Shown: positions 788 to 56,700 of the stretch, one piece after another
Layout of the letters: each line of letters begins with the position of its first letter
Numbering within the stretch: the first letter of the stretch is position 1
NCBI GenBank assembly: GCA_051294905.1
Contig: CM119372.1
Span: forward strand, 1,612,001-1,676,000
DNA: 64,000 nucleotides
Direction: 5' to 3'
Origin: Botryllus schlosseri
Taxonomy: Eukaryota
Made by a program: the position numbers and the translations under genes
The notes under the pieces: generated by a model
Seen by the model: the letters and a program-made list of their open reading frames with translations, nothing else
The model's database searches: none
What the model was told of the DNA's origin: nothing

Positions 788-1225
788 ATTATGTTGGTGT
801 CCGGTTGCCGGTTAGTTAAATAGATCTGACTGGACGTTCTAAGATTTTCAACTCCTGTCGCTCCTTCGTAAGTTTTCGCCATCCAATTGCCCACGTTGTT
901 ATTTTCGCCCCTGTATTTCAAAATCGCAAACTGAGGAGGGATACCGCCCACGTTTGCAACCAGTGAATTAGCTTAAATAAAGCGAAATGACGGTAATCTA
1001 ATGACTCTAATTTGTGAACGATATCTATGTTCTGATTTGAATTCTAATCTAATTCCTGCTTTTCCTGACAATTGCTATTCTCATGCACTAATATATCTGA
1101 GTTCTGGCGAATTCAGTAATCCCAATTTTAATCTAATTCGGAATAAAACTGTAGCTATAATTCTAATTCTAATCGAATTTGAAAAAGATGAAAATGGCCT
1201 ATAGTTTTCCGAATCTACCTCGCAG

Positions 1226-16200: not shown

Positions 16201-16829
16201 ATCACCAAATATGGAGATGATTCTTCCGAGCACTGACATTATGCGTTCCTTGCTACTGAGAAAATTACCCTTGAAACGTCGATTGATCATATGGCAGCAT
16301 ACGAAACATGTAGTACACTGATACGCACATTATTGGAAATGACACATCTGAGAAGTCGTCATCAACTCAGAGCTTTGTCACAAAGTGCAATGAAATAGGC
16401 AGACAAATATGAAGCTATATCTTTAATGTTAAGTAGAACTGGCCTTACATTTTTTGTGGTCGCCTAAAATGTAGAATTCTCTCGCCACGTCTTTCATACT
16501 GTTATGGCTCCATAGCTAGTGATAGTCAAATAGGCCTCTCGACTTAACTCGAAGGCTCGGAGACTCAGAGTCAAATCATACAGGTACACGGTTTTCCCGA
16601 ATCGAGATGTAGCCTTAGATAAGTTGGATTGATGATACTTTCGTTTCAGATGTATTTAATCACCGGATCCTGTGCCGCTAACATTGTAGCGTTCGCCATG
16701 ATGAACGTCGTCGCAGGACGGATGAGAAGAAAAAAGGAATCGATGACGAGTGGCGACCTCAGTAATAAAACGAAAGGAAATTCTAATCTGGGATTCGAAG
16801 ACGAGCATCAGACTCGCACGAAATTATGA
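1226..16829 (+). CDS. MFSD4/NaGLT1-like major facilitator superfamily transporter (5'-partial, 10 exons, 448 aa in window)
   Basis: Exons with AG/GT boundaries and consistent phase: 1226-1403 (GLFISITGPTLLFLAENTNSDVTQVSAMFSGRSVG), 5493-5609 (GLMFGYLDAG), 6301-6408 (LWGEEASRPYIQSFHFGFSVGALLAPII), 10741-10863, 11403-11534, 11991-12133, 13855-13992 (TTVFWTGFGIGRGSG), 15744-15837, 15907-16040, 16650-16829 (TGA). Total 1347 nt, open throughout. GPTLL, W-G...P...Q..HF.F..GA..AP and FW..F..GR are typical MFSD4-family motifs. No start exon is seen in the window. Confidence 0.9.
2238..3943. mobile_element. hAT-type MITE family D, nested in family C
   Basis: TSD gtatacaa on both sides; CCGGA/GGAGC repeats; homologous to 60121-60564. 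Confidence 0.75.
2280..3517. mobile_element. hAT (Charlie-like) MITE, nested in family D
   Basis: CAGTGGTTCTCAGCC...GGTTGAGAACCACTA; perfect TSD acctagtg; GCGGACCCC subterminal repeats. Confidence 0.9.
7045..7402 (-). pseudogene. Truncated, frameshifted 7TM (GPCR-like) gene fragment, antisense in a transporter intron
   Basis: ORF 7402-7145 has an N-terminus with N-x-S/T sites (NTS, NYS, NVS), a hydrophobic TM1-like segment, a basic loop (GRKKELLQWKYQRRR) and a TM2-like segment. After an (AT)n slip near 7148 another frame continues MMLFHIILRRDGIRNCVTLIDVLYVFIFLGIFCTL*, with a Cys at the start of a TM3-like helix. Confidence 0.5.
7490..8436. mobile_element. hAT (Charlie-like) MITE
   Basis: CAGTGGTTCTTAAA...TTTAAGAACCACTG; perfect TSD atgtacaa. 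Confidence 0.9.
7622..7910 (+). mobile_element. Full-length tRNA-derived SINE
   Basis: tRNA-like head (GATAGCGCAGTGG, GAGTTCGAGTC), (CAAA)n tail and 13-bp TSD aagggtttggcca. Other copies at ~8650-8862 (-), ~12184-12427 (-), ~32088-32211 (+), ~36780-36853 (+) and 63930-64000 (+). Confidence 0.9.
8911..9043 (+). repeat. Representative of a ~130-bp unclassified interspersed repeat (about 10 copies in window)
   Basis: AATTGAATAGTATATTCATATTGAAATGAACCCGAATATTTTCG.CTGACACTCGTCAGGGGTAATCGTCAGCAACTAG...CAACAATCGTATCAC. Copies near 12430 (-), 16090, 27245, 37313, 38146, 38266 (-), 38729, 41558 (-), 43530 and 48362. Confidence 0.8.
9357..10337 (+). mobile_element. Internally deleted Chapaev3-like DNA transposon
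   Basis: CACTG...GTG termini flanked by TAA on both sides. ORF 9695-10156 keeps DCYF...GFN.KN...I..NLP and EGVSVGPQMRTL, which resemble Chapaev3 transposase motifs (family assignment from memory). Confidence 0.55.
12184..12427 (-). mobile_element. tRNA-derived SINE copy
   Basis: Reverse complement of the 7622-7910 head and body. Confidence 0.8.
12966..13699. mobile_element. hAT-type MITE
   Basis: TAGGGTTACCATA...TATGGCAACCCTA inverted termini; TCCGGA subterminal repeats. Confidence 0.75.
14194..15142. mobile_element. hAT-type MITE family C
   Basis: CAGTTTTGGGAT...ATCCCAACACTG; perfect TSD gaaagtat. Confidence 0.9.
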
Positions 16830-22900: not shown

Positions 22901-25900
22901 TCAACTGACTTTATGATCTCCGCCCTAAATTGAACCTACATGTGATTATACTCGTAAACAGTAATTGGCTCAAGTCTAGGCTTTCCCACCCGACCTAGAA
23001 CGACCTGATTTCTGGTGTGTATCCACTACACAGTACGTATCAGTCTCCTTGCTCCGTGTTACACACTTGCAGACAATAATATTAACCAATACGGCCGTGT
23101 GATTGGGCTGTGAGTAGGGTTGCTTTTAAAACAAACGGTGTTTTAAAACACTTTGATTAAAACATGGTTTTTAAACAGAGTTTTAAACAAAGGCCTTTTT
23201 GAACAAAACAAAATTGTGTTTTCTTTAAGCTGTAAAATTATGCCGTAATTGTTTAAATACATTCCAAAAAGCATAATGTACGAGCCTACAGACAATAATC
23301 ACCCGATATAACCGACGTATTTCGATATGGGATGGTTTAACCCTCAAAATAGTCGGTTCAACATTAATACTACAAATATTTCGTCAAAGGAGCTATATTC
23401 ACCCTATCTTTTCAATTGTCAATGTCGTTCCATTATTACGTCACAATTGAATATTCGTGGCGTCATGCCTAAAAATCATGTTTTAAATTAGGCCTTGTTT
23501 TAAACATCTTTGTTTTAAATGCAACCCTAGCTGTGAGTGCCAGTGGATCACCCTATTCTGAAATGAATCACAATCACGTACTAATAATTCGTACTTTACT
23601 ACCAGGGTTGCTGTTGGGTCGAGTCAAATTCCTACAACGTCAAGTGTTTCAAATCGTCACCGATCGCTAGCGGGTAAGAATAGTTTGATCCGACTTAGAT
23701 AACTAAATACTTATTGTCTAATTAGAGCGACATGTCGTTAATATAATTCAAACATAATTTGTGAAATGTGAAATTCTAAGCTCTCATCTTAATTCTAGTA
23801 TAATTAAGGTTTTTCTGGGAATGCTATGCTTGAGAAATAGCCCGAATCGATCCTGTCTTGACGGACATTTGCCTCTCTCGTGCTTACGAGAATGTTCTCC
23901 GATTTCATACCAACTGAATTTGATTCTTGTTGCATTTCCTTCTGATTCTGAATTCAATTCGTCCTAAGTTTTTTAGCGAATTAAGTTATTCATATCTAAT
24001 TTGAAAAAAAAACTGTGTAGCTATAGTTCTAAATCTAATCAAATTTGGAAATGCTTAAAAGACTTCAGTCGTGCAACTTTGTTGTAAATAGACTGATCAC
24101 TGTTCTATATTTATTACGCTTGACACTTCCCGATCAATATGCTCAATCTTTCCGCAGGAATCGGGTTTCTACGGGCTCTGAACCAATTGCGGAGACTGTT
24201 GAGATTGCTCCAGTCCCTACTAAAGTGTACGATCGATTGCCAAACCCGCAACACAAAAGACCCGTGAGTGTGAAGCCTTCTCTATTTCTCGAAAACAATA
24301 TTTGAGTTTCGACATGAAATAGGCATACATGTATGGCATACGCCACACGGGGCGTGTCGCCCACCGTAGATGGGATGATTTTACATTGACTTGTTTTTAA
24401 CATTTCTATTGCATTTCCAGGTTGAGTCCCAAACCAGAGAAGTAAAGCCGGTGAGTCATGAACAAACAGTATACATTACCGTTTTCTAGAGACTGTTGAG
24501 ATTGCTCCAGTCCCTACTAAAGTGTACGATCGATTGCCAAACCCGCAACACAAAAGACCCGTGAGTGTGAAGCCTTCTCTATTTCTCGAAAACAATATTT
24601 GAGTTTCGACATGAAATAGGCATACATGTATGGCATACGCCACACGGGGCGTGTCGCCCACCGTAGATGGGATGATTTTACATTGACTTGTTTTTAACAT
24701 TTCTATTGCATTTCCAGGTTGAGTCCCAAACCAGAGAAGTAAAGCCGGTGAGTCATGAACAAACAGTATACATTACCGTTTTCTAAACAGTCTAATTTTC
24801 CATGAGCAACAAGCAAACGCTCAATCCAAGTGAATTAATTCTGCAGCCGCACTGAAACAATGTATAAAACTTTATGAATATTTTCCCTTTCAGAAGTCAG
24901 GAATCCAGAATAAAACGCCTGATTTATCGGCGCTTACCCAGATGATGATATTTTGCGGAAAAAAGGATAAGACTCTCTGCACAATGTCAATGATGAGCAT
25001 TCTAGGTGGAGGCAATGTATGTATATTTAGTTAACTCGCGTCGATAAGGAGAGACCTTTGTCACAGTCATTTGCTGGAAGTTGTGAAGTTGTATGACATA
25101 AATTGAGTATATTAACGGCTTTCCCGACACTTCCACATGCGAAACCTGAGCATCTGACTTTATAACCGCACAATTAACGCTAACGATGACCGCATCTCAT
25201 CCCGAACCCAAACTTTAATCTAAAAATTCCAACCCTAAATTTAACCCAAATGCTTAAGTGTTACATGCTTATATATCCAGAGACTACTTTCATTCTTGTC
25301 TTTCGCTGTTAGATGAAGCCATCCACCGAAGCACCAAGCGCCCAGGAATACATGAATTATGTTCTCCGTAGAAAATCGTTCGGCGAAAGTTCATCAGGTA
25401 TCCTTTTTCAAACGTACACTTTCTATGACAATACGTGATATATGGAATGGCCTGCGAAATGCATAGATGCGAGAAAGTGAGACATAAGAATTAAAGTAGC
25501 CTGCATACATTATTTTTACAGAATATCCTTCGAAACCAACATAATAAGTACCTACATCCATGCTCGCAAATTTCTTTACTCTTAGCTTGTCAACTGATTC
25601 TCATCGGGAACGACCGTCAGTAAACACGGAGATTGCAATTCGAAATTTGCGCAATTCGAATATTGTATAAGAAGTAGATCGATGATAGATACAAGATTAT
25701 GACTTATTGCAAACTATGTGTCAAGATGATAATAACGAGACACAACCAAATTATATCTATTGCTATATAATGCAGAAATACCGATGCAGCCGAAGATACC
25801 GGGAGAGATGTATATCCAGTATTCGCCAATAGGAGATGCATACCTGGGTGAGGCTAAAATAGCCGATTTATGAAATATTATACAATATAATTAAAAACAC

Positions 25901-38600: not shown

Positions 38601-41154
38601 ACGACCATGATGAAGGCACGTCGATAAACATATCTCATTACGGACGCTCTGTTCGTGATATTGAACACGTGAATTCGCCTTACGACTTCAGAAATGCTTC
38701 TTGGGCATACAGAACGTCAATATACAATTCAGTAGTATATTTATATTGAAATAAACCGGAATATTTTCGGGTGACGTTGGAAATATATCACCCGCCTGTC
38801 ATATGCTCATTTGCTTAAAATTGGAATAGTAGATTCTACATTTCGTAGTTATTGCGGATATACACCGTAATCGTGGATCATTGTATTGCTTAGTGCAAGA
38901 CACACTTCTAGCGGAAAGAGTGTGTATCGTGTACCACCTCTTATAGACGGGTGTGAATAAACAACCACGGCACAGAAAACCAGAACCTTCCTCAGACTCA
39001 TACCGCGAGTACCACACTTTTCGTTTGCCACTCATGTCGGCCCTTTGGGTGTGAATTCACACTGGGTTCTCTAAGAATGCATAATTTTCATAGTAAATTT
39101 CTCATCGATAAATGTGTCCAATCAAAATAGATTTTTTTGCATTACCGATTCGCTCTCTCACTCTCACAAAGTCGCATAAATCCATATTGAATCTGTATGG
39201 CCGAGTAACCTGCATTGGTGACCGATATCCTATTGCATCGTTTTGTCATTACATCTCATTTCGTGGTAGCAAATCTTTTAGTTAAATAGACAACAACAAT
39301 GCACATTTGGACTATTTAGTCCAATCTCGTATAATTAGAGCGTAATACCAGTAAACATCTATTTTAATCTAATTTGCGAAATGCTTTCACGGTCTTATTT
39401 TCATTCTATTCTATAGTTTCTTGATTTCCTGAAAATGCCACAGTAGCACTGTATAGAGGGGAACGGGTCAAGTTTGGTGTACCCCCGTTTACCATTCTCG
39501 TGCTTATGATATGAGATGAAATTGATTTCTGTCGCATGTCGTTCGAGTTTGGAATATAATTCAATTTCCAACTTTTTACAAATTCAGCAATGAATTCGAA
39601 TCTAAATTGGAACAAAAGTGGTTAGGTGTAACTTTGATTAGGGTTGCATTTAAAACAAACGGTGTTTTAAAACACTTTGTTTAAAACATGTTTGAAACGG
39701 TGTTTTTAAACAAAAGCCTTTTAAAAAAATGTGTTTTTTTAGGTTGTAAAATTATGCCATAATTGTGTAAATACTTTTCAAAACATTTGTTGTATGAGCC
39801 TACGGACAATTACCACCGATATAGCCGACGTATATCGATATGGAATGGCTGGTACCCTCATAATATTGTCGGTTCGACAGCAATAGTACAGATACTTCGT
39901 CAAATAAGCAATATTTACCCTATATGTTCAATAGTCAATGTCAATCCACTATGACGTCATAATTTAATATTGGTGTCGTCATGGCTTTAAAAAAAATTAA
40001 AAACATGTTTTAAACAAGGGCCTTGTTTTAAACACGTTCGTTTCAAATTGATTTTTGTATTAAATGCATACTTAACTGCAATTCTAATCTAATTTTTAAA
40101 CGCTAAAACTTATGCAGTTCTTCAACAACAACAACAACAACAACAACTAGAGAAACAACCCACCTGTCATTGGGGTGAAATCGCCTCCTCCGAACAGCGA
40201 CCTCGCTCCCAGATTCTTGTAAGTGTCCGTCATCTCTTTCGTGAATTCGATCTTGAATTTGGGAATAGACACCACCACTGTTTGCATCTTCCCGTACTGA
40301 TTCAGAGCGTGCAGCACGTTGTCTGCCAGCGAGTTCTCCATATGCACCAACCCGTCTCTTTTCTTGGGTAACAGGATGATCATATAAGCCGCGTCTCCGT
40401 TGTAAGGCAGCTCTATTAAACTGAACACATCGTTACTCGCGTATTTATACATTCCCTTGTTGTTCATGAAGGTTGATTTTACTGGTGTGTTTCCATCTAC
40501 GAAGAAATCAGCCTGCATAGTGCGTCTAGGGTCGAATTGTTGTTTCCAAGAGTCTTTAAAGTAAATAGCGTTCGCCAAAACTACCTCAGTCATAGGACTT
40601 ATGCTGTTGGGCGGCAGAACATCCTTCAGTATTCCGTTTGTCTTCTGTTCAATCCATTTATTGATGATCATTCTCGAGCGTTCCGTATCGGACTTGTAGT
40701 TTAAAGTCTGTACAGTGCTGCCGTAGTACATTTCCGCCATTCTGGTGTAGTTATCCCGCATAACGAATTTAGAATCTGGAAAGATCCTGTCCGCTACTAC
40801 GAAAGAAACGTCGCGCGACTGCTTTTCTATGTACTCCCGCACCCTGCGATGCGACTCGTGGATTTCACGCACGTCCGGGTTGCAAGCGCCGTATTGTAGG
40901 AATGTCCGCAGCTCGCGTTCCGTGTGGCCGTCAGTACCGAGCATCAGCATAGCAGTAAATGAGGAGATACTGTACGGCGAAAAGATGATGTTCTGAGCCC
41001 CTTCCGCCACGAATTCTCTGTACAAAGTCATGGATAATCTATACCCAGACTTGATGACTGAGCAGTATTCTCGCCTGCGATCCTTTCCGGATGCATCCCG
41101 CGATAATGCAAGTAGCAGTAGCACAGCAAATAAAACACTTTTCTTGACCATCAT
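35640..41154 (-). CDS. Secreted serpin (serine protease inhibitor), 401 aa, two coding exons
   Basis: Exon 1 is 41154-40164 (signal peptide MMVKKSVLFAVLLLLALS, NIIFSPYSI, INKWIEQKTNG, NAIYFKDSW, IPKFKIE) with a phase-1 GT donor. Exon 2 is 35854-35640 (HKAFIDVNEEGTEAAAVTIGAMTRSL...FICNHPFMFYIVHKDTKSILFLGRYVMPA*). Total 1206 nt. The hinge motif is of inhibitory type. Confidence 0.95.
39639..40074. mobile_element. hAT-type MITE family B, degenerate right end
   Basis: Colinear with 23115-23529. Confidence 0.75.
40123..40147. repeat. (CAA)n microsatellite
   Basis: About 8 CAA units, starting 16 nt into the serpin intron. Confidence 0.9.
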
Positions 41155-44100
41155 GTCAGTTTTTTGCAATAAAACACGTATAGTCTGGCTTGTTTCAGCG
41201 AGTTATGAGGCGTGAAAGTCGTTCAGTCTATTAATATAACCCAAGGGCGGCGATGAAGCGCCTTGGGCGTTTTAATAACGGTTTCGAACACATCAAAGGG
41301 AATTGGACTGTGTAATTGAATGCGTCATATCCTGACGAAATATCGGTATAAATAGGTCACATAATAACTACTGGGGACGGTCCGGACCAAACATGGGACA
41401 ATAGTTATTTGTATTCGTATCGATGATGTCGATTACAGCATTTTGAAGTATTCGTAATGTATAACTCTCTACAAGGACAATTACTAAACTTTTCTACTTT
41501 ATGGGGACTTGAAGATACTTTTGTGGGTACAGAGCATCAGCATACAACTGATATTCCACGTCATATTTCGTGATACGATATGTCATATACAATTTTCTTT
41601 TCAATTCTCCACCAGTTGCTGACGATTACCTCTAACGAGAGTCAGCTGAAATTATTCGGGTGCATTTCAATATGAATATATTATTCAAATTTATGAGTAT
41701 TATTGACATTGACATAAACTCAGTTTTACAGGGACTACGGCGTATGCTGAACAGGGGACAGATGCATGGTATTGACAGTACAATTATCGGATTTATGAAC
41801 CTCATTGTTCATTATTACATATCCAAAATTAGCGATCCTCAAATTATATACTATTAAAATCAAATATCGAATTGCTACAACACAGCGATTGGTGATATAA
41901 GCACTAAATCGAAAGGGAGCTGTTTTTCGTGGTACTCGTAGTGGCTGCCAGAAATATCCGTGTTGTGTGGATTGCGTGTTGTGTGTTACGTTACGAGAAG
42001 CAATCATCGTTGTGGCACAATTTCGTGTTCAATTTGACTTATTATCCGATGGTGCTACTTGAACGAACTACAACGGTAATTGGTCAAATCGCCGGGGAGT
42101 GTTGTGCGGTGGATATATTTTGAAGCAATAAGAAAATGGCGGCACGTATGTTTACAATTCTGTTCTATTGTGCCGCAGCGTCATATCAACCAAAACAGCA
42201 AAATAAATGTGATTGTCAATAATCGTGATGCGTATTCCGTGTAATCGTAATCCTCCATTTCTGGAATAGATCGCGTGTTAATATTTCATATCTAAAGCCT
42301 TATACACAAATTAAAATCATCGTGCTTGGTCAGTTGGTCACTCCACTAACACCGTTGCACGATCGTTACCTACATTCAAAAGTTTTTTTTTCAAATATAG
42401 AAGCGACTGTGGGTGGTGAACTATGTACAAGGCTTCGTAAACAATAACACAAGATGCAGCTATGTAGAGACATGCACGATTCCAGTTTTTGAGATATCTG
42501 CATTGAATTATCTCTCCATATCATAGTTGGAAATTTTCCATTCAGTAACACGCTATGCCCCGGCTATACTGACGACGAATACGAATATATTATAGTAGTA
42601 ATTATCGATACACACATATTACGTGAATGAGCGATATAAAATTACCCATGATGGTGCAATGTGCCATGAACCATCCCGATGTTAATTTTGATCAACGTCA
42701 ATAACATAAATTATAATGGTGAAGAATATATAAACCGTTGTATATGATGTGTATTTTTGTCTGGAATTCTGACCCTTGATAAAAATCACGAAATGTTGGG
42801 TCAGTATATCGCACGATACGCGAGCAAGAATTTTTCAAGTTTGAAATCTGTGACATAAAATACTGTCTGGGACGGGGGTACTTTTGAGACAATTATGACT
42901 TGTCGGTTCAATATCAAGTAGAAAATATTTGCCACAAACGACTCTATTTTATATTAATTTGTCAAATAAGTCTGAATACCCTTCGATCTTCGACCCTCGA
43001 ATGGAGCGTTAGGAGTGCTGCAGCTGCGGCTCCACGCCAACTGTCAGCTCGGCGAAGTTGATTTTGGCTCAGATAGAGTCATATCGCAGTCTAGTGCAGC
43101 GAAACTTTAAAACATTCGATAATGTACAAAATAATATAAGATATATCATTGCTGTCGTTTGCAAAGTCTATTACGAATACTGCGTTATCTGACTTGATGA
43201 AATTAGTTTAAACCGCCTGGGGCCATGGAATTCCTACCGTAGTCATGATTGAATGCATGAATGTCGTGAAATTAGCCTTAATGTCCAGCAGAAGCACTTG
43301 ACTCATTCACAATGCAAATATTTGGTAGTTTCATTTCCGCGCACGATGAAAAGTCCATTGCACGAAAAAATGGCCCAAGTGCATTCTGATAAATGAATTT
43401 TAATGGGCATCAACTGCATTGGACAGTATCATGGATAGGAGCGGTTACTCCGATCCGAATCCTAAAGTTGATTTAGACTCCGATCCCTAAATCCCCGATA
43501 AGGGATGAGTAATGCTTCATGCAAATGATTAGTATATTCATGTCGAAATAAACCCGAATATTTTTGGTTGACACTCGTCAGGGGTAATCGTCAACCAATG
43601 GTAGAAAACTGAAAAGAACATTTTATATCAACAGTCGTAGCGCCAAATATGACGCCTCGGAGTCGACTTTTATCAAAATCCTCCAACCTAACGTTTGTGC
43701 CAACAGATGGAGTTCGTGTGTAATGTAAAGATAATACATTCTGCTTAATTTCAATACAAATATACTATTCGAAAGTATATTGAGGTTCTGTACCTCCACG
43801 ATTCTATCCAAGTCATGAGTATTGTATGTAAATTACAAAGCGAATATGATTGCTATTTCCGCTGAAACAAAATGAAATGTCTACATCGTGACAGCTAAAC
43901 ACGAAACTCGTTCATCACGCATGAATTCCACCCGAAAACTTGGTAAGATCTTCCTTTAGGCCACAGGCGCGCTCAACAAAAACCCCGAATTCGGTTCGCC
44001 TTTGGTCGTGCTATATTAAAACCACAGCTCTTGCTCCGATTTGGGTCCAGTCAAAATCTCTAACATCCGGCCAAGCTCCACTCTGGCTCCGATCTATGCT

Positions 44101-44796: not shown

Positions 44797-47700
44797 TCAT
44801 TCTCGATTCTCTTCGTCTTCGGATGGTCCTACAAAATGTGACACCTTATATAATCTTAAAATGGACCTCCGTTAGGAGTACTAGCACTATAAGTGTGCAA
44901 AATCGGTATCTGAGGCTTGTTGGGATGAACGCTAACGTTTTGCGCTGGTTAATTCTCTTGGGACTCGGCCAGCTGGCAAGGGTCGGGTATGCTTATGCCT
45001 GCCGGTTATGGAGGAATGATTCTAGCGCGCAAGCTAGTGAAAATGCCATATCAGTCAAGTAGTGGTCAGCCCACAGCATTGCCACAAAGTGCAAAGACAT
45101 ATAGGTATGACGAAAAAATACCAAACTATCTTTATGTACTGTGGAATCGGCATTTTGTTGCCAGAAGGAACATATTTAAAGTTTTCGTACCATCTATAGT
45201 CGTATATGAAGTTATAATGAGTGATACTTGAATACTAGGGATGGTGTGACCTCATGACGACACGTGGCGTCATATTGCTAATTCCAACTCTACATTTCAG
45301 TGAAGTGATGGCCTATATTGATGTACAGGTCCCCGATACCTATAGCGACGACTCGGGCCATATATTGCCACAATGCTGAAGTACATATTGACGTTTTAAA
45401 TTTCGCCAAATGCATCAACAGAGCCAATCAAATGATAAAATAATCCCATAAAATCAATATCTTCCCTCGCTTTGCCAACAATTTCGACGAGGACTTGGAA
45501 GGGAATATATGCTTATGCCTTAGCGGTCTAGGCCAGACCGGACAATGTAATCGGCGTATGAGAATTGCTACGTTGATATTGAGCAGAGTGTAAAACGGGT
45601 TTCTATACTTGCTATTGATATTAACCCATTAACAAGTTATACAGCAGTAGCCAACACCCCAATCGCATGGATTTGCTTTTTATGATGAAAGAAACATATC
45701 AAATCAAGATTGACCCCGTGGGCCTGCTATATTTTTTACATCAGACAACGATATCAACTTCATTGATTGGTTGAGTAGGCGTCATTCGCTGACTACCTAC
45801 ATGTAGTTCATTTCGCTCTTGAGGTTGTGTGATTGCGCGTCAAGCTCACAGCAGAGAGTCACTAAACATTCGAGCAAACTTTGGTAACAAAGCAAGTAAA
45901 ATTTATGAGATAGTCAAGGTGCATGCTCGTTTAGTGTTGATTTTTTCATGCTGCCAGCGCCATGCATATAGTGGCCCGCAGTTGAAATGTAATAAATTTC
46001 AACGAAAAGATGTTATAAGGAAGTGAAAATTGTAATGTATGAAAAAGGTTCACAGTGCAGAACCTACCAATGTTCGTTTGTGAACGTTAATTCTAAATTC
46101 CCGAGGTTCACATACAGAACGCGAACGTGAACCTCACGTTCACGCCATCCCTACCTATATTAGCATTACTCGTTTCAGATGAGTAACGTATAGTACAGCA
46201 ACTTAAGTTGACTCACCGCTGAAAACGGATTTTCATGATAAAGAAAACCTGCTAGTGGGACCAGCACTGATGCGCCGATAGCTGCGCCCGTGGTATAAAC
46301 GAAAACGTATTTCCCGGTCATGTTTGTCACTTCGTTGTCACTTCAGGTTCGTTTATGAACGTGAACCTCTAAATTTCAGAGGTTCACACACAGAACGCGA
46401 ACGTAAACCTCACGTTCACACCATTCCTATTGAATATTCTAATTGAAGCTAAGTATTTGAATCACTGAGGTACTCGATGTCACCCATCTCAAGAGATATT
46501 ACCAGGCCGTGTTATTTTTGGCATTTCAGGAGCCAGATGCCAAAACTGCCAAAAATAAAAATTCGAAAATAAGCAATTTTTGGCATATGCCAAAAATAAC
46601 ACGGCCTGCCAAATAGTGTATTTTGTTCATTTTGTTCATGGTGTTGTGTTAACAGGACCGCGTTACAAGCGAGAAGAGCGTTTCTGAAAGGCAGGTTTCT
46701 TAATCTGGTTCCTGCCTACCCATTAGGGGTGAAAGCATGGTGTTCTAAATGGTGTGGGCACAGCCAGATTGAACGGCTGACTGCATTTGGTTTCACGTCA
46801 TACTTTCCATTTGTCCAAAGGCAATCTTACGACCAGTTTTGACCGGCTTGTCGAGCGCTAAATTTGATGAAAGGGGTATCAATGAGAAGCTGCCGCAGTG
46901 CTAATTATTAAAATATAAATAATATTCTGCTCATGGAACTGGAACCCTCAAAATCAACCACGATTTTTGCATTGTGATCGAGTTAAACATAGTGACCTCA
47001 CAAACTGCCTGGCTATTTCTGAGCTGCATAGTCTCGTTTTGCGAGACAGTCTTGTTGCGTCAATGTTTTTAAACAAGCTAACCTTCCCAGGACTCTTCCA
47101 CGCGAGTTGGTAATATTAAAGCCACCTGAAGTGACAAAAGTCCTCCGAAAATATATCGGTAGACTGAAGGAAAAATGATAGTCGGGCTACTAAGTAGAAT
47201 GTGTTGAGAGACAACTCAGGAAACTCCTGGAAAAGGATCGGGAAGAAAATTCTTTCCGCGATGAGATCGATGCCACTGGCCAAGTGATCTCTTTTCATGG
47301 TGCATGGAAGCCGGTTCGGCCCTTCAAAGATTTTGAAGCTCTGAAAACCTTTTGTGGATGACTGGAAACATTCTTTCCCTCAACGGCTACTGTTGAAGCC
47401 GATATTTCCCAGATTCGCTGGGCGAGAAATGAATTTAGGAGAAACTTAGCTGACTTGACTTTGGATGCACTGTTACAGTGCAAACGATTTAAGTCTATTC
47501 AACAGCTGTAACAATCAGCTGTTGAGCGTGTTTGTTAGGCTTTTCATTTTTTTTCGCTTATTGGCACGGATTCCGATGGATACTGCACATTTTGTGGTTT
47601 CGTTTGATATTATTAATCTATGAAATCGTTAGGTTTTTTCTTCTTCTTATTGTTTATTGGCACTGATTATACGTGGATGCTGCACATTTTTGGTGTCTTT

Positions 47701-50700
47701 CGACAAACTAGCCCAAATAAAGCGTTTTTGTGACTAATTCGAGGCTGAAACTATCTATTTAGAGGACGATGCCAAAACTGCCAAAAATAAAAATCGAAAA
47801 ATGCCAAAAATAAGTTATTTTTGGCAGTTTTGGCATATGCCAAAAATAACACGGCCTGGATATAACTCATTAATGTGCGGTGAGGAATATAGATCGTATG
47901 TGTCGTCAAATCTACGATTTCCAGAATAATGGATCCTAAACGTTACAGCAATAAATATCGTGCATATGCCCGACCACTAGTCAACGACTTCACAGCTCAA
48001 ACGAATATTACCATACCTTGGACAACAGAGTATCTCTTCTTCGAGTAAGTAACTCCCTCCACGACATTAGTACCGTGACACTCGTAAACTCCGTAATCGG
48101 CTTTAGTGACGCCGTTCAACACCAAGGTCGATTGGCCGGAGGCTTTGATTTGATTCGGAACTTCAGCCCCTTTCAAGAACCAAGTGACATCCGGGGCCGG
48201 CGATCCGGACGCCGAGCAATCGATTTCGAAATGGGAAGCCTCCTCTACGACAGGGTCGTCCGCGGCAACGTGGATATCGTGAGGCTCAACTAAATAACGG
48301 TTTAATGTTTAGACAGGAGAACAAGAGTAAGCGAGTAGCAGAGTGGGAAGTATGAGTAGGGAATTGACTAATATATTGATATGAAATAAACCCGCATATT
48401 TTCGGCTGACACTCGTCAGGGGTAATCGTCAGCAACTATAGTAGAGAATTGAACAGAACATTGCGCATTACACATTGCACATTACTTTAATAAAGTATTG
48501 ATTCTTTTGTGGTAACTATGACAGTCGCCAACGTTAGGGAGCACAGCGTTGTACTGGCGTAAGGTTGTAAAAACGTGGTTGCTAAACTGTGTGGCATTTT
48601 TGTCTCAATATTGCATTCTTGTGGCCCGCGGCCTCTACGAAATTTGAAAAGTGGCCCGCGACCCTTTTTGACGATCACTGTCCTGAACACTGACATTTGC
48701 GGTGAATTATCAGTGGCTACACCTCCTGTCCAGCTAATCAGAGGTTTTGGGTTCGACTCCCGCTATCTGTATCTCAAAAACGTGACCGCTGGCGTGTAAA
48801 GTGCCTGCCGGTCCCAGGCCTGGGTATACTACAGTCAAGTCATTCTGCGGATCGCTATAGACACTGCACTTCAAATCCATGGATGGAAATATGTGTAGTT
48901 ATCAGATTTCCACCATAGCGCCGGGTTTAAATGAGTCAAATACACCAATCCTCACGGAGATATATCCCGGAGGTGTAGCAGGTTCTGTGTGCACCCCCTA
49001 TTTGGGATTTGTTGGGATGGTACACGCAAACAACTACACTTCTTGGATATATCTCCATAAGAATTGGTGTATTTGACTCATTTTCAACCTTTGATTTACA
49101 CTCCAATACGGTTGGAAGTACATCAGAGGAATACACCTATTTGCATTTACAGTATAAGCTATCACCCGCAACGCGTTGTCCCCCCAATTCATTGTTGGCT
49201 CTTAGCTGCAGGACGCAACTGCCACACCAAAAAATCGCTAAGAATGTGGAGTGCATGTGTATAGGCTTAGATGCGTTCCAGGATTTCACGCGAACCAACA
49301 ACAGCAACTAGCGAACAGCGCTAACACTAACCTCCCTCACAAACGTAAGAAAGTCTTTGATCACATTTCTCTGTTGCCGTTCCATCGACTGAAACAGTAT
49401 AGCAAAAGTCGTCGCCTCTGTCTTCATCTTCAACCCAGTACCTTTGTGTCCTAGAAATAACGAAGGCATGGAGAATCCGTTAACATGTACGGGAGATGTG
49501 ATACCGATGGATCAAAAATTGCAAAATGCTCTCTGGCCGATAAATGTCCGACGTCCGTCCAAGAACAACAGATCGTTTGCCTCAACACTTTGATCCAAGC
49601 TCTACCTACTGCGGATATATACATGTTTATTCGCCTTTTCCAAAAATGCTTGTGAACGTTTAGAATTACACTGAAGAATGGTGTTGAATTAAGAAAATAT
49701 GGGACTTGTGATCATGGGATTATCATAGAAAACTTTTTTCAAGTCTTTTGGGTCCCAGCGCTTCATGGGTTCCACAGCTCTTCTATGCAAGCTCTGATAG
49801 CTCGCTACACAAGTTTTCCAAATTGGATTAGAATCAGAATGACTTAATTCGAAAAAGCTTGGAAATTTAATTTAATTCCAAATTAGAAATAAATACAACA
49901 AAAATCAAGGTCAGCTCATATCAAATCAGAGTTCATTCTCAGATCTGGCTTGTTTCTGACGTTCTCAGGGGATTTTTCAGGGGAATTGAGGGCATAGAAA
50001 TCATTGACAAATTAGATTAGTACTAGATTACCGGCATTTCGTTCTAATAAGTCTAATAAGACAACTAGAGTTATTATCACAAATTTTAAACTGCTCCAGC
50101 TCCGGCTCCGGAGCTCTCTTTTATGATAAATTAGCTCCGGCCCCAAGCTCCGGAGCTGATTGATACCGCTGCTCCGGCTCCGTAAACTATCGAATGGTTC
50201 AGTCATGCAGTCAATAACTACACCGTTGCGCCAGGGGCCATCGCGCCGAACCGTTATTTTGTGTGGGTATGCACGGTTCTGACTGTAATCTTAAAATCGT
50301 GGGATCATCATCATCATTGGTTTATCAGCAATTTTTATCAGTTCAATGCGCCACAAAAATGCGATACAATGAAAAGACAGGGAAATGTTGAAGCGACTTG
50401 GAGTATAGTCTATGGAATCAGACACCCACCTTGGCCTAGGCGATGTAAAGAGGAGGCATGCACATGCACACTGAATAGAAGTAGAGAAGATAGCATAGGG
50501 GGGAAAAGCGACAAGAAATAGGGCGGCATGTCATGGGAAGCGAGATCGATAGGTCAGTCGTGGTCCGGTAATCTTGAGGATGGACTGTATTTATTGTTCA
50601 AGTGTAACTGCAACATAAGCGCATATCGCGACCAGAAATTAACTTGCTACCAAAGACCGAATGGGTTGAAATTCGATATTGATGCGCTCGTTACCAGTCC

Positions 50701-53700
50701 GTCCGGTGTCGATCAAGTTTACTGGAATATAGAAAGTTTTCCTTCACAAGAACCGAATAAACGCAGAACTATAGTGCCACTAAGAATCTGGTGTGCAGTG
50801 CATCGTGTCATTAACGAATTAAACTATATACACGCTCATTGCATGACCATTCAGGAATACGACTGTTTCCAGCAGACAAGAGTAAATGCACAGAACAGAT
50901 GACTACATACTGGAAAGCGCGCATTCAATCACTAATTTCTCAATATTATATCTAACACCATGTGGTTCGGGCATCGAATTGACTATAGCTCGCGTCGGGA
51001 AAATTGTTCGCGAACGGCGTTCTGGGATGTGTTTCTCTATTTATGTTCGCAGATCCACACATCGATCGTGCGCAGGATTGAATTCCAATTCGCAGCCACA
51101 CACAATACCACACTGTTAAATTTCGCGGTATTATTAAAAAGCTATCACCAAATAACGGGCATTTGCTCGACTAATTCAGAGAGTAGACGGCGCAATGTAT
51201 GCCGTATCTCTGCGTGCTCACTGCTCACCTCCAAATCGACATGTGCAAGTGCAGCAAGGTCACATTTATCCTTTGGCGTCGCTTCATTTAATTCAGTGTT
51301 TCTCAAACTTGTTCCCATCACGTACCACTAATTTGTTTTTTTACCACAGGGCGTACCACTAACTTGTTTTTCACTTCAGGTCGTACCTCCTGAATTACCT
51401 ATTTTACTTGACTGTACAAGTGTTTGCTGGTGATTTTGTCAGTAGTATACCGCAACATCAACGGATGGCAAGAAAGCATAATTTGATGAGATAATTGGAA
51501 CTATTTCTTATGCAGAAGCTCGCCAATCTGAGGGGGGACATTACTCACAGCACTCTTCGCGTATACCACCTAAGAAGCTCTCGTGTAGCCTACAACTGCG
51601 GTACGCGCACCACACTTTGAGAAGCACTGGCTAATTACTCATTGTCATTAGTTAATTTGCTCAGCTCACATGAGCACCAGTACCATTTTGTGAAATACTA
51701 AGTGATCAATATTTTTCGAAGTGCTCTATTGGCCATCATTGATGTGCTGATGACGAAATTGCGGGTACGACGAATAACCACGTCCCAGAGTATAGTAAGG
51801 CAAATCTCGCATACCCAGGTTTAGCGCGTTATATATGAACAATTTGTACATGGTTAGTTTGAAAAAGGTGGCGCCAACAAGGCAAAAATTCTTAAGTTAT
51901 TTGTGAATTCGGCCAGAAGTATTAGCCTAGCATTTTATAAAATACGTCGGAGCCGGAGCTACTTTTCAAACAACCGGCTCCAGCTCTTGCTCAATCAGAA
52001 TTTTTTTAGAACTCCGATAAAAATACAGGGCTCCTGCTCCGGCTCCAAAGCCCTGGTTATTATCTAGTTGTCCAATGCTGATGTATTGGTAGTTGGTACG
52101 AAGCGTATTAAGAGTTGGTAAAGTGAAGTCGTGGGTTCACACTCGCGTACAAGATACAAATTTTAACAGCATGTGAAGTTTATTCGAACTCGAATCTTTC
52201 ACGCGCTCGATCCTTGCTAGTCCGGAGTATAGACATAATGATAGAGCGGGGGTGGTCAAACTGCGGCTCTTTTTTGATTGCCATTTTGCTAGAGAGGTTT
52301 AACCAGATTATAGATTGATGCATTTTGTCACGTAATAACAATATGCGCATTGTTTCCGTGTTGTTTCTTTCCTTCTGGTTTACGTTTGTAAAATTTAGGG
52401 GATGCTCATCAGCAGTTGAAGGAACTGCTCCACACTTCTTTGACTTCATATCAACCTGAATTCAAACACCGTGTGGGGACGCAGCGAGAGCCTACATTCT
52501 AGGGATGGTGTGAACGTGAGGTTCACGTTCGTGTTCTATGTATTTGAACCTCAGTAATTTAGAGGTTCACGTTCACAAACGAGCCTTGGTAGGTTCTGCA
52601 CTGTGAACCTTTTTCATATAATACAATTTTCACGTTATTATAACATCTTTGGTTGAAATTTACTTCATTTCAACTGCGAGTCAGTCAATGCATTAGGGTG
52701 GTCCTTAAAAACGAATTTCGGAAAGTTGTTGGTCTGACGCTGCCAAAATGTTTCTTTTGGTTAAAAAACATCTTGTGTAAAATTTTATCGATATTCATTA
52801 ACGTTTAGAGGTGGCTCAAGGGATCCGAAATTCTACCCGTATCAGGTACGGAACACATATAGCCACTTTATATTTGCTAAACGCTTGAAAGTCTCGATTA
52901 CCTCGTCTGGGTATTAGCTGATCATTGGCAGGGGTGCCATGATGACAAATATCATATTATTTTGCCAAGTAAGCTCTGATTGAGGGTGTTGAGGCACATT
53001 TTTGGCGCAGGTCCGCAACAACCCTAAATGCAAACTGCAGCTGGTCCTCAATTTTTTTGTGAGATGGGCGTATTATATTATCTCTTATGTACTTCGCCTA
53101 GGCTAAGGTGGGTGTCTGATCTTAAAGGCTATTCCAAGTTGTTTCGACACCTTCCTATCTTTTCAATTTATCGCAGTCTTGTGAAACGATGAAAATATTA
53201 ATAAACCTGACTGATTGATGGGCATAAACATCCTCAATCAATGCGTGGGACGTTCTGTGTGGTCGTTGGACACAATCAATGTGAGTGTGAATCTTGTTGC
53301 AGCAATAAAACTAGACTGTCCCTTCCACTGAGCTGCCGGATATTCAAGAAAACCATCGGAAAGGCGCAAGTTTTCCTAAAATAAGTGTTGTCTGCTTTGT
53401 CAATTTAAGTCTTCTCTGGAATGTGTTTAAAGTTAATAATCACACACTCCATAATAGTTATTCTTCCGATTCAGCCTCTTTTATAGCAACAACTATCTTA
53501 TCCGTGGTGCCCTTGTCCAGATCGTCATCAAACAACGCCACGCCAATCAACCCCGAAGACGGCAACCACAGTTGCCCTACAATCTTCCTCACCGTAGCTT
53601 TAGATATGTCGACAATATTCGCACGATACTTCTGCAGCTTTAAACATTCACATTAATGTTGGCTGTTGCCCATGCTTCAACGTGGATGCGAAATAGAATA

Positions 53701-56700
53701 TGCAGACTGCAGAGTTCCCGCAAGCCTCTATGCTAGCTCGAACGAAACATCCGGACCAATTTCGCTACCCATAGATCTTGGTGCATGGCTACCGTAGTTT
53801 CAAAGTGGACGCCTCGAAAAGGGACAGCGCAAAGGCAAATAAAGGCCAAATCCAGTACTCTGTAATGATCTCTCGTCTGAGTGACTTTCACAGCTGTCTC
53901 CAATACCTTCGCCATCTCATTTATCATGCTATAGTCACAGCATCGGATGTATGATGATCAGTTAACGAGTCCTCAAATGTAGTCTGGTCAATGCGACGTC
54001 ATCTTCTTTTGAAGCAGTTGACCAAGAGAACAAAAGGAGCGGTCAAAGTTACCCGGGCTTCCGAAAAGACTGATGCAGGCCAACCATCTGCTCTAAAAGA
54101 ATGCAGGTTCTTTAGTGCCGACCGGCATCGGAATCAAAGAATATCCCTGGATCTTTTTCTTTAAATCCCCGTCTTTCAGAATAGAAAAGATAGCCTCAGC
54201 TTGTGCTTTTCATATCCTAGATAGTAACTTAAAGCTAGTAGCTGCGATTGGCCAGTATTTGTCACTAGCATAGGCAGTCCGTCAACAGCCTCCATTCCAG
54301 TGACATCTGGGATTAGTTTGCCATCCCTGTGCACAATGAGTGGAAACTGTGGGTCTAACTAATATTTAATTTCTTTGGAGATGATTCTACTATTAAAGAG
54401 GGTCAGTATTAACTTAAAAAATCTTACGGTAGAAGACTTTATTCAACTTAACGACGAAGAAATCACCAATTATTTTAAGAAACCCGCGTCTTTCAGGTGT
54501 TTTCTGGAATATTAGGGTGCTTAGAGGAAGGAGCAGCCTAGTTTCATTGCCGCAAAAACTTTCATCAGCACATTAGCTGTCACCAGCTACCAGGATGAAT
54601 GTTGCAATGCCTTAGTTGGGGATTTTTCTGTCCGAATCACGAAGGAGAATGAGTAACTGCATTTTGCATATGGAGTTTTTGGTGACCGAGGCGAAAAGGC
54701 TTCCTAACACCCTGAAGCTGACCTTACTTGGCTGCGGCAATTGCTATTGGTCATCAGGACACGCACCCCAGCCACTGACCAACTAGTAGCCACGCGACGG
54801 AATCCAGGCTGGAACGTTGGTCAGGGAGCAGCTATAGAAGTTCAAATTTGCAGCTTTATATTGCAAATGGGTATAATTTCGGATCCATTGAGTCATCTCT
54901 AAACATTACTGAATATCAATAAAATTTTACACAGGGTGTTTTTTAGCCACAAGGAACATTTTGAAAGGGTCAGACTAACAACTTTCCAAAATTTGTTTTT
55001 TGTGCTTATTCAATCAATTAATGAAATAGATATCGTTGTCTGATGTAAAAAATCTAGCAAGCGTACGGGCCTATGGAGTCCATCTCAATTTCATGTGTTT
55101 ATTGTATTATAAATACCATATCCCTGCGATTGGGGTGTTGGCTACTGCTGTATAACTTGTTAATGCAGTGGTTCCCAACCGGGGGGGAATTCCCCCCTTG
55201 GGGGGAATTTTGATATTCTTAGGGGGGAATCTGGCTTAATTTTTTTAGGGGAAATCTGGCTTTGGCATTGTATCGGAAGATACACTGGGTTCACAAGGTT
55301 TTTAGATTTATATGGTATAGAACTGTTAAGTAGAAATTAGTTCTTAACAATTGTATGTTTCTTTGGCGTATTTCAAGCTAGGTGTATGTTCAAATGCCTT
55401 CCGTATATATTACACCCCGTGATAAAGTGAGACTTACGAGACGATTTCGTTGGGTCCACGACAGCCTCTCGACCAAATTGCTATTAAGCAAGAAAACGTC
55501 AAGCCGACTTCAGCACAAGGCCGCTAGTGAAATTGTTTAACTTTTTAAGCCAACATATGAGCTAACGTGAAAAACATACCGTACCAATTCATCGATTCAA
55601 CTCAAGTCCATAGCGAGCGGACTTGGTGATTTATTTTTCGTCAGCGGCTACCCAACCGGTGAAAAACAGGTCGAATTTGACTGTATTTTACCAAAGTTTA
55701 GTGCGGTCCGCATTCGCCATACTTCGGATATATCTGAATATGTTTGGCCATTAGTTGCTCAAGATAGCGTAATGGTGAACAAGATAGCGTAATGGTGAAG
55801 CGTCCGGCTTCTTGATCGGTAGGTCGTGGGTTCGATCCCCGGCCGGGTCAGACCAAAGACCTGATTATAGTAACACTGGTATCCATGACTTCCCTACTTG
55901 GCGCTCATGCATTACTGGGATAGCCTGGAGGGGTGGTGCCTGACTTAAAAAGCCGTAAAGGCTATATCTGCACTTCCTTGTCCAGCGGCATATGCACACC
56001 ATACGCTCATGGTGTGCATATTCACAGATCGTGTGTATGTGTATCATGAGTCGGTGTATATGCCGCAAAAAACAGCAAGGACAAAAATAAACTACGTCCT
56101 TTCCTTTTCATTCAACAAGTGGTTGCGCGTTAAAAAGCACATTTTTTTAGTCACAGGCAACTTTTTCATAGGGGGGGAATTTCAGCTCAAATATATCGGC
56201 AAAGGGGGGCACGAGACGAAAAAGGTTGGGAACCACTGTGTTAATGGGATAATATCGGTAGCAAGTATAGAAACCCGTTTTACACTCTGCTCAATATTAA
56301 CATAGCAATTCTCAGACGCCGATTACATTGTCTGGCCTGGCCTAGACCGCTAAGGCATAAGCATATATTCCCTTCCAAGTCACACCATCCCTACTACATT
56401 CGTATTTTTGTGTTGTGGCTCTTTTAAAAGTAGGATTTTTTTACGTGCGGCTCGCGCATGAAGCAGGTCTGCTCACACCGTGTGACAGACTAGGAGACGA
56501 TAGTACCACACGCATACCCTACCCAACCACAATCCCTCGAATCTCATCGGCGTTTCCGAAGCTCGACCTCGCAAGCCTGTATCCTGTCTGTTCACACATT
56601 TGGCGAGCTTGACTGTACGTAGCGACTTCGGAACTCACGACGTAGTGGCTGAAGGCCCGCACAGGTGCAGCGATAGCTGGAAATAATCGGGAGGGTCGAC

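Follow-up and report, generated by a model that had tools for sequence, protein, structure and literature searches.

The element at 45236-46429 of the window, i.e., of the whole 64,000-nucleotide stretch of Botryllus schlosseri DNA under analysis, is a non-autonomous hAT-type transposon with 8-bp target-site duplications (TSDs) on both outer sides. Its foreign DNA was copied, from the right end outward, out of the flank of a same-family (family-A) element which sits 76 kb upstream in the last intron of a transporter paralog, P1; the bodies of the two elements are not the same. We consider it likely that a break inside the resident element was repaired from this sibling copy and that synthesis ran on into the sibling's flank. 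The best reading of the event is transposition-independent gap filling, a route already described for single-copy animal Pack-TIRs. The locus and the features of the window which bear on it are:

45228-45235, no strand: left TSD, ttgaatac; 7/8 match to 46430-46437, 8/8 with the C variant at 46437
45236-46069, plus strand: resident family-A element, left terminus TAGGGATGGTGTGA and body; short-left form
46070-46153, plus strand: patch part 1, the terminal 84 bp of the right end, from the sibling at C2:1581.5 kb; 77/84 identical to the source
46154-46216, minus strand: patch part 2, last-intron sequence of P1 (63 nt); colinear with the source locus
46217-46337, minus strand: patch part 3, from the penultimate coding exon of P1 (121 nt out of 134); 40 codons
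46338-46344, plus strand: filler tcacttc, 7 nt, a second copy of 46327-46333; the source continues differently here
46345-46429, plus strand: outer right end, the resident element's own last 85 bp, aligned to the family consensus and followed by the TSD
46430-46437, no strand: right TSD, ttgaatat; C at 46437 in other reads
52500-56393, minus strand: cargo-free sister element of family A, oppositely oriented; it contains nested insertions and has an internal deletion
52492-52499 and 56394-56401: TSD of the sister element, ctacattc, identical on both sides
15907-16040, plus strand: exon homologous to the cargo, in the transporter gene of the window itself (paralog P3), the exons of which run from 1223 to 16805

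The patch interrupts an otherwise regular transposon. When 46070-46344 is removed in silico, 45236-46069 and 46345-46429 together equal the family consensus with no base missing or doubled. The first segment matches family copies over its full length at 82-88%. The second, all 85 nt of which align to the family, starts exactly at the base which in a normal copy comes next after 46069 and is duplicated by 46070-46153; the two copies of the right end, which finish at 46153 and 46429, are 90% identical over 62 nt in one comparison (family D3). The first-pass annotation had reported the outer TSD, the two right-end copies with foreign DNA between them and the cargo-free sister element, and all of these were found again. 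On the minus strand the cargo, 46154-46344, reads SDNEVTNMTGKYVFVYTTGAAIGASVLVPLAGFLYHENPFSA, then GTGAGT. It had been described as a stop-free exon fragment of 39 codons with this donor and about 60 nt of intron; the count is now 40 source-derived codons (46336-46217) and 63 nt of intron in total (46154-46216), with the donor at 46216-46211. The exon copy begins 13 nt past the acceptor, and the fragment therefore lacks one.

The superfamily assignment follows from the termini and the target sites. The terminal inverted repeats of hAT elements begin with YARNG and their target preference is nTnnnnAn. Both termini were found in 40 of 47 family-A copies; a perfect 8-bp TSD is present in 26 of these 40, and 32 have a TSD with at most one mismatch. 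Among the latter, T occupies position 2 in 24 and A position 7 in 27. The window element has TAGGGATGGTGTGA at both ends and fits the hAT superfamily by its 8-bp TSD, short inverted repeats and target preference; at its insertion site it is an ordinary member of the family, with family-typical 8-bp TSDs. The genome contains at least 150 scored matches to Dimer_Tnp_hAT (PF05699). Family-A elements measure roughly 0.9-1.0 kb, and their copies are 12-18% diverged from one another. Position 46437 is a C in contigs of run X5, a second sample (depth 35.8/35.8), and in part of run X1 (7.2/24.9), so the original TSD was probably a perfect TTGAATAC.

In the 495-Mb assembly the cargo has three matches only, i.e., its own locus and two neighboring segments of a single exon (95% and 93%), 76 kb upstream on the same contig; elsewhere it lies only at C2:1575942-1575984 and C2:1581371-1581520. 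The match is more than chance, and no other cargo-bearing copy is among these three genomic matches. The source is the penultimate exon of P1, a tandem NaGLT1/MFSD4-like paralog, and is colinear with all other P1 exons. The same intron comes next and then a family-A right end, with 229/247 positions identical throughout; the intron piece 46154-46212 alone gives 54/59. The source element starts 65 nt past the donor, is inverted relative to the window element and carries on its far side its own target-site copy CCTATTAG; the sibling's target-site copy adjoining 46153 was also included in the patch. The first-pass annotation had predicted just such a source: an exon nearly identical to the cargo, in an intact paralog, ideally with a family-A element or footprint about 60 nt past the donor.

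At the protein level, the cargo and P1 agree in 28/30 and 12/14 residues, the cargo and exon 15907-16040 in only 19/41 (18/39 by the earlier count), in line with the earlier claim that a paralog and not the window's own transporter supplied the fragment. A first word-based homolog search with a single exon found nothing; with a second exon as query, full-length homologs were obtained. The cargo aligns to residues 394-434, 396-436 and 404-444 of three of these (P0001-P0003), all of which carry PF07690, and patch part 3 covers residues of about 394-434 of a 494-aa homolog. The fragment thus has its homolog in the exon of a 12-TM MFS transporter that goes by the name of sodium-dependent glucose transporter 1. 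Among seven exon pieces searched against Pfam one, an exon of the window gene, gave a weak match to MFS_1 (E = 0.0017), which is below the cut-off. In Styela clava, P0003 and P0004 bear the names 'sodium-dependent glucose transporter 1C-like/1A-like', and an MFSD4 label for the cargo gene would derive from such database names ('sodium-dependent glucose transporter 1-like') and from NaGLT1, which we take to be MFSD4B.

A decayed resident gene as the origin of the exon was considered and rejected. When 19 exon pieces from P1 and P3 were compared by tblastx with both strands of 30001-64000, the only significant match was at 46214-46349; the remaining ones have E >= 0.007 and are scattered. No other paralog exon is present in this part of the window, and the refutation test set by the first-pass annotation thus leaves its reading standing on this point.

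The earlier interpretation went further and proposed that the source element had mobilised its own flank. In such a transduction by end bypass, or macrotransposition, the P1-intron element would have been cut at its left end and at an outer, second right end and moved to 45236 with the DNA in between. The proposal has several points in its favor: the cargo directly adjoins a family-A element at its source, as predicted, the TSD flanks the outer termini, both elements have a short left end, and the source is only 76 kb away, hAT elements being known to prefer linked targets. Yet we regard it as improbable. Window and source bodies are identical at 628/723 positions (86.9%), which is family background, whereas the patch agrees with its source at 250/268 (93.3%; Fisher p = 0.0047). 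The non-coding patch parts alone reach 131/143 (91.6%), which against the body gives p = 0.13 and makes the substitution argument weaker. Further, 37 of 47 other family copies compared resemble the window body more closely than the source element does, and only 2 of 52 window-private body substitutions are common to the source.

The subfamily markers point in the same direction. The source element possesses a 23-bp block and a G, the markers of one subfamily (16/18 copies each). In the window element the block is missing and the marker site is a T, as in 26/29 and 25/29 copies of the other group; these non-source states are located after 45868 and at 45969, respectively. The T/G marker is one site only, and an independent deletion of the block is conceivable because short direct repeats bound it. 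Moreover, 46003-46062 is present in the window element and missing from the source element. To the right of this segment the affinities are reversed. The inner right end shares with the source uncommon variants at 46071 (2/47 copies) and 46100 (1/47) and the state C at the polymorphic position 46102. The outer right end has the consensus state at the homologs of 46071 and 46100, and an A at that of 46102, where the consensus is T. Since all source-shared variants lie at or beyond 46071 and all discordant markers at or before 46062, a template switch would fall where the outer right end begins.

Transduction does not predict that the outer piece starts precisely where similarity to the source begins. 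It also leaves unexplained that the outer right end, rather than marking an insertion boundary, amounts to a truncated piece of 85 bp attached via filler, and that the source exon is devoid of what an outer cut should leave: in this one assembly no right end, footprint or length change exists 13 nt into the P1 exon, which has 134 nt exactly like its homolog in the window. Thus, of the overall interpretation given in the first-pass annotation the Pack-type structure, a gene fragment inside the ends of a non-autonomous hAT-type element, and the paralog source are retained, while transduction by transposition is not.

Two properties of the ends have to be read with caution. The inner right end is 92.4% identical to the source, a value which the unrelated copy L013 equals; right ends are conserved across the family. 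This weakens the evidence for kinship of the inner end and counts against our best reading. The short left end, in which about 70 bp of subterminal sequence are missing, is uncommon, and its joint presence in window and source could be a hint of their kinship. As proof of a parent-daughter relationship it was rejected: the short-left junction is present at no fewer than 91 loci (control 0) as compared to 5,599 first-look family candidates, and copies with a short left end do not resemble the window body more than those with a long one. Another short-left copy, L048, is also without the 23-bp block, like the window element.

Gap filling from a sibling copy would have proceeded as follows. A family-A element inserts at the present position and generates the TTGAATAC duplication. 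Later a break would occur within the element, 85 bp from its right terminus; alternatively, excision of the element may have been followed by its re-synthesis on the sister chromatid as far as that point. The 3' end left of the break, ending at 46069, would pair with the inverted same-family copy 76 kb away in the last intron of P1. Synthesis would then copy the last 84 bp of the sibling, continue through 63 nt of intron and enter the penultimate exon for 121 nt. Here the new strand would leave its template, slip back on TTG and re-copy 7 nt, and the far side of the break would receive the slipped end with no homology involved. This would leave the resident element intact, with 275 bp of templated patch inside it.

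The junctions agree well with such a course. As the filler DNA starts with 84 bp of a same-family copy, the first template switch was presumably guided by homology between the two transposons; if the source had already been without the 60 bp ahead of its right end, homology left of the switch would have amounted to only about 7 nt. At the second junction the 7 nt of re-copied filler stand behind a 3-nt microhomology, the shared ttg (46324-46326 and 46335-46337). Together they form a 10-nt direct repeat, ttgtcacttc, at 46324-46333 and 46335-46344, which is the short repeat the first-pass annotation had spotted at the junction. A single copy, a zero gap in the transposon and a filler with 3 nt of homology are traits of gap filling. 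Because the body is not that of the source, the transposon would have been present before the capture.

The composite may also have been patched at another site and then have transposed here as a finished product, i.e., as a Pack-hAT that has moved at least once. Both of its termini are family-like, the TSD is intact, and a single copy is compatible with such a course because cut-and-paste need leave no second copy. We nonetheless assign a low probability to it. It demands an extra step with nothing calling for one, and the closeness of patch and parent, 76 kb, is directly explained by an event at the present place. Late activity is doubtful as well, given a left end short of about 70 bp of subterminal sequence and a divergence of 12-18% among family copies. 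The locus itself does not separate patching at its present site from patching before transposition to it, and the former is favored on the grounds just given.

A third group of explanations comprises a hybrid of two neighboring elements, a plain segmental duplication and an assembly artefact; even taken together they are very improbable. According to a review (PMC13317346), a tandem-array model with complementary terminal deletions has been proposed for Pack-CACTA elements, and two right ends in the same orientation with non-transposon DNA between them resemble its product. However, the DNA between the ends is not local but consists of flank, terminus and target-site copy of a third element 76 kb away, and the element is complete after removal of the patch. 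A duplication unrelated to transposons would not begin and end in register inside transposon copies. Against an artefact stands a 141-nt short-read contig of run X1 which bridges the 46153/46154 junction with 0 differences; it is not independent support because X1 may be the assembled sample.

In run X5, contigs join both unique flanks to the element ends. The cargo is seen there in the source-type version only (one contig, depth 88.8), and such contigs cannot demonstrate absence of the patch. Reads which skip about 275-283 bases between right ends come from thousands of ordinary family copies. No patch-free allele of 45236-46429 was seen, and this we count against gap filling at this locus. 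In the RNA run X23, of which about 6 in 100 reads were sampled, no read fell on the unique part, 46197-46310. Patch and parent are about 7% diverged, and four of the six exon differences between them change the amino acid. An exon piece without acceptor, with amino-acid changes compared to its parent and in single copy, looks biologically inert, and there is no sign of movement or expression of the patch.

How do these findings relate to known systems? P-element-induced gap repair from ectopic templates in Drosophila was reportedly described by Gloor et al. (1991, Science 253:1110), and abortive gap repair yields Ds from Ac. Here as there, a transposon break would have been repaired from a homologous copy elsewhere, and copying can include non-homologous sequence. 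Unlike those experiments with active transposase, the present event is natural and old (about 7% divergence), and any part played in it by a transposase is hypothetical. In macrotransposons of the Ac/Ds type and in end-bypass transduction, the cargo is likewise the immediate flank of a transposon copy and the composite lies inside one TSD, but in the window the body is not that of the source and no second end exists at the source in this assembly. Pack-MULEs and Pack-CACTAs of plants are also non-autonomous elements with terminal inverted repeats and exon fragments. They are members of different superfamilies, often mobile and present in many copies, whereas the window element is single-copy with no evidence of post-capture movement.

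The closest relatives are the single-copy Pack-TIRs of animals. According to the survey by Tan et al. (2021, Nat Commun 12:4280, PMC8277862), these are mostly hAT (208 of 370 cases), arise by gap filling, are biased towards parents on the same chromosome and have small gaps in the transposon; end bypass figures in its introduction as a capture route for TIR elements. The window element corresponds to the Pack-TIRs of this survey in being a hAT-type element with non-transposon DNA inside, in its single-copy patch with a parent on the same chromosome, in closely spaced transposon breakpoints (here with zero loss), in a non-homologous junction with very short homology and in a TSD that would date from the earlier insertion. 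Transposon sequence lies on both sides of 46154-46337, with the parent at C2:1575942-1581520. Differences are that the filler of the window element starts in a same-family copy and runs into its flank, with duplication of the right end, and that the parent is 76 kb away, while the majority class of the survey is under 15 kb. Because the pipeline, as set out in its Methods, kept only parents unlinked to TIR transposons, cases shaped like the present one are outside the count, the TE-linked-parent class having been filtered out. This is a survey filter, not a biological definition, and the P1 exon, 65 nt from a family-A element, falls on its far side. The survey's main text makes no mention of tunicates.

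How cut-and-paste transposons capture pieces of host genes is still debated, the candidates being transduction, gap filling and hybrids of neighboring elements. At this locus every witness has survived: the element that received the patch, the donor locus, which still has its own transposon and target-site copy, the two junctions, and subfamily markers which distinguish the bodies. For this reason carrying along a flank and patching from a sibling's flank can be told apart, and the window case favors the latter. A parent adjoining a transposon is thus not sufficient for inferring transduction.

It is conceivable, although we would not presently count on it, that sibling-anchored capture of flanks is a general and so far uncounted route of exon acquisition for high-copy hAT elements. 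A break in one copy would be repaired from a nearby copy of the same family, and synthesis past its end would import neighboring DNA. The products would imitate transduction because the parent is transposon-linked. If true, many events ascribed to 'transduction' by DNA transposons would go back to repair, and the window composite, which has kept both termini, would be a Pack-hAT precursor that is still mobilisable.

As a separate observation, the segment 46030-46153 has a folding z of -4.65, and the putative break point coincides with an unpaired stretch just ahead of a large hairpin. That a hairpin-prone right end caused the break is speculation.

The element at 45236-46429, a member of the 0.9-1.0 kb family A, carries foreign DNA between two copies of its right end. 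The target-site duplication (TSD) flanks the outer termini. The layout described in the first-pass annotation, i.e., outside TSDs, two right ends and between them an exon piece with donor and intron, is confirmed in the sequence (bare positions are those of the window, C2 denotes contig CM119372.1):

45228-45235: left TSD, ttgaatac, read in sequence
45236-46429: window element, first bases TAGGGATGGTGTGA; two copies of the opposite end, finishing at 46153 and 46429
46154-46344: cargo, contents on the minus strand: 121 nt of open exon, GTGAGT donor at 46216-46211, 63 nt of intron in all
46430-46437: right TSD, ttgaatat, read in sequence

Position 46437 is C in short-read contigs of sequencing run X5 and in some of run X1; therefore the original duplication was probably a perfect TTGAATAC. 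A 141-nt contig of X1, possibly the sample that was assembled, bridges the 46153/46154 junction with 0 differences. When 46070-46344, the patch, is removed, the body 45236-46069 joins 46345-46429 as in the family consensus (...CCTACCA/AGGTTCG...) with no base lost or doubled. The 275 bp taken out are made up of the final 84 bp of a sibling element, 184 bp of the sibling's flank and 7 nt. This 7-nt filler, tcacttc (46338-46344), is a second copy of 46327-46333 behind a common TTG.

A search of the 495-Mb assembly with 45236-46153 returned 5,599 first-look candidates, 40 of which were scored and yielded 41 matches besides the window element's own; among these scored candidates full-length copies are 82-88% identical to the query. 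Both termini could be placed in 40 of 47 full-length copies examined. The 8-bp TSD is perfect in 26 of the 40 and has at most one mismatch in 32, with T at position 2 in 24/32 and A at position 7 in 27/32. The consensus forms of hAT elements used for comparison are general knowledge. Together with TAG... termini and the many hAT transposase domains that the genome encodes (150 or more scored matches), the TSDs fit a non-autonomous hAT element. The left end exists in a long form and in one about 70 bp shorter; the short form occurs at no fewer than 91 loci (control pattern, 0) and apparently arose by deletion between GTGAACCTC repeats. Copies with the short left end mostly have a 23-bp block after the homolog of position 45868 (16/18) and a G corresponding to 45969 (16/18); long-left copies mostly lack the block (26/29) and have T (25/29). 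All four combinations of left end and block are present (loci L008-L066), suggestive of repeated deletion or of exchange among copies. The sister family-A element at 52500-56393 is heavily interrupted by other repeats and contains no counterpart of 45250-45491; its inverted-repeat pairs (132 nt, 52707-52838/54869-55000; 21 nt, 55160-55180/56224-56244) may bound nested elements.

Against the whole assembly the cargo has three matches only: itself, C2:1581371-1581520 (95%) and C2:1575942-1575984 (93%). The latter two are halves of a single exon, the penultimate coding exon of a transporter paralog, P1, 76 kb upstream. There the same intron comes after the exon, and a family-A right end stands 65 nt past the donor, as had been predicted from the window alone; exon, intron and right end agree with the window at 229 of 247 positions. 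The far side of this source element holds its own target-site copy, CCTATTAG, so the flank is native at P1 and copying ran from P1 to the window. This target-site copy reads CCTATATTAG in the patch (46154-46163) and CCTATATATTAG at the source today, a small AT-repeat series with an intermediate length frozen in the patch. The expected origin from a paralog and not from the window's own transporter, P3, is borne out at the protein level: 28/30 and 12/14 residues are identical to P1 versus 19/41 to P3. The refuting condition of a decayed resident gene at this site was checked too: on neither strand of 30001-64000 could any further P1 or P3 exon be detected. The genes concerned are:

C2:1571322-1584022, plus strand: P1, every exon in order
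C2:1587748 onward, plus strand: second paralog
1223-16805, plus strand: exons of P3, the window's own gene
C2:1575985-1581370 (L005:1-5370 plus the end of L004), outside the window, minus strand: LINE in P1, 11-bp TSD TTTTCGTTTAT, (AAC)n tail

Thus at least three transporter paralogs stand in tandem. The third, P3, resembles the second (61-75% per exon, protein) more closely than it does the first (28-64%, mostly 40-52%). Full-length homologs have 494-506 residues, an MFS_1 domain and database names such as 'sodium-dependent glucose transporter 1-like'; the cargo corresponds to about residues 394-434, and the nearest named proteins to the window's are from the ascidian Styela clava. By similarity the array members appear to be NaGLT1/MFSD4-like transporters. 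The LINE, 5.4 kb and full-length, interrupts the penultimate exon of P1; it has two open frames, an upstream one of 474 aa and one of 1261 aa that encodes endonuclease, reverse transcriptase and RNase H domains. A 721-nt X5 contig crosses the insertion point uninterrupted; therefore the LINE is probably a young, polymorphic insertion disabling P1 on the assembled haplotype. The source element itself holds a nested insertion of about 1.4 kb (L005:5934-7371) whose terminal repeats have CCTAGGCC...GGTGGGTGTCTGAT-like sequence; similar motifs occur at 50405-50455 and 53082-53132.

Had the source element carried its flank along, as the first-pass annotation proposed, the window element would be its copy. 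Over 45250-46069 of the body the two are identical at 628/723 positions (86.9%), over 46070-46337 of the patch at 250/268 (93.3%; Fisher p = 0.0047), a difference which is not significant for the non-coding part of the patch alone (131/143, p = 0.13). As many as 37 of 47 other family-A copies are more similar to the window body than the source is. At 58 sites with a clear family consensus the window element differs from it: the source has 2 of the 52 in the body and 2 of the 6 in the last 92 bp, the last two being carried by 2 and 1 of 47 copies. At the polymorphic site 46102 both elements have C. The 23-bp block and the G are in the source and not in the window element, the block being flanked by short repeats such that it could be lost twice; conversely, 46003-46062 is absent from the source. 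All variants common with the source lie at or beyond 46071 and all discordant markers at or before 46062; therefore similarity to the source starts where the outer right end starts. At the source exon neither a right end nor a footprint nor a length change is found where the outer right end should have sat, and its 134 nt equal those of its paralog in the window. Both elements do possess the uncommon short left end, which could hint at kinship, although L048 is a further short-left copy that lacks the block. With a body that is no copy of the source, opposite markers, no second end at P1 and a window element that is colinear with the family consensus once unpatched, transduction is very improbable.

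What stands of the earlier interpretation is a Pack-type hAT with a paralog exon and the source as foreseen; its origin is probably templated repair, not transduction. An element already resident at this site would have broken 85 bp from its right terminus. Its left 3' end would have invaded the sibling copy 76 kb away in inverted orientation, synthesis would have passed the sibling's terminus into intron and exon, and the released strand would have slipped back, added the filler and been joined to the opposite break end. Excision followed by re-copying from the sister chromatid would be an equivalent variant, and a replicative template switch would give the same product. The right end is hairpin-rich (z = -4.65) and the break point lies directly before a large hairpin, a link that is only suggestive.

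hAT elements account for 208 of the 370 Pack-TIRs that Tan et al. 2021 (PMC8277862) report from 100 animal genomes. Single-copy cases are there attributed to transposition-independent gap filling on the grounds of same-chromosome bias, breakpoint microhomology and small gaps in the TE. The window element fits this class as described, with the difference that the first part of its filler comes from a different family-A copy, which explains both how the break found its template and the duplicated end. The words 'ectopic' and 'same family' are absent from the main text of that paper. According to its Methods, a parent was retained only if it had no association with TIR TEs, and TE-linked ones may have escaped detection; cases shaped like this one were therefore not counted. 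The tandem-array hybrid model for Pack-CACTA, as outlined in PMC13317346, does not fit: what lies between the two ends is not local DNA. The mechanism class is known and the example unusually clear; the twist is a sibling-anchored choice of template, which the survey, going by its Methods, excluded by design.

Patch and parent disagree at 18 of 268 aligned bases, and about 770 bases of the window body hold 52 private substitutions; on these counts the patching is clearly younger than the insertion, though not of recent date. The exon piece lacks an acceptor and differs from P1 at six positions, four of which change the amino acid (hand count). The patch has one genomic copy; the unique part of the cargo drew 0 reads in the single RNA run examined, which is not counted as evidence.

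Immediately to the right of the element, 46493-46608 and 47769-47868 are short palindromic MITE-like repeats of GGCCGTGTTATTTTTGGCAT/ATGCCAAAAATAACACGGCC, one arm pair enclosing about 1.3 kb. The closest recognisable gene is a 351-aa open frame on the minus strand at 40147-41202 that matches the Serpin domain strongly (E = 7e-72). Farther off, at 24143-24772 on the minus strand, two adjoining open frames share their first 95 residues and diverge only at the C-terminus; they point to a recent tandem duplication of some 330 bp.
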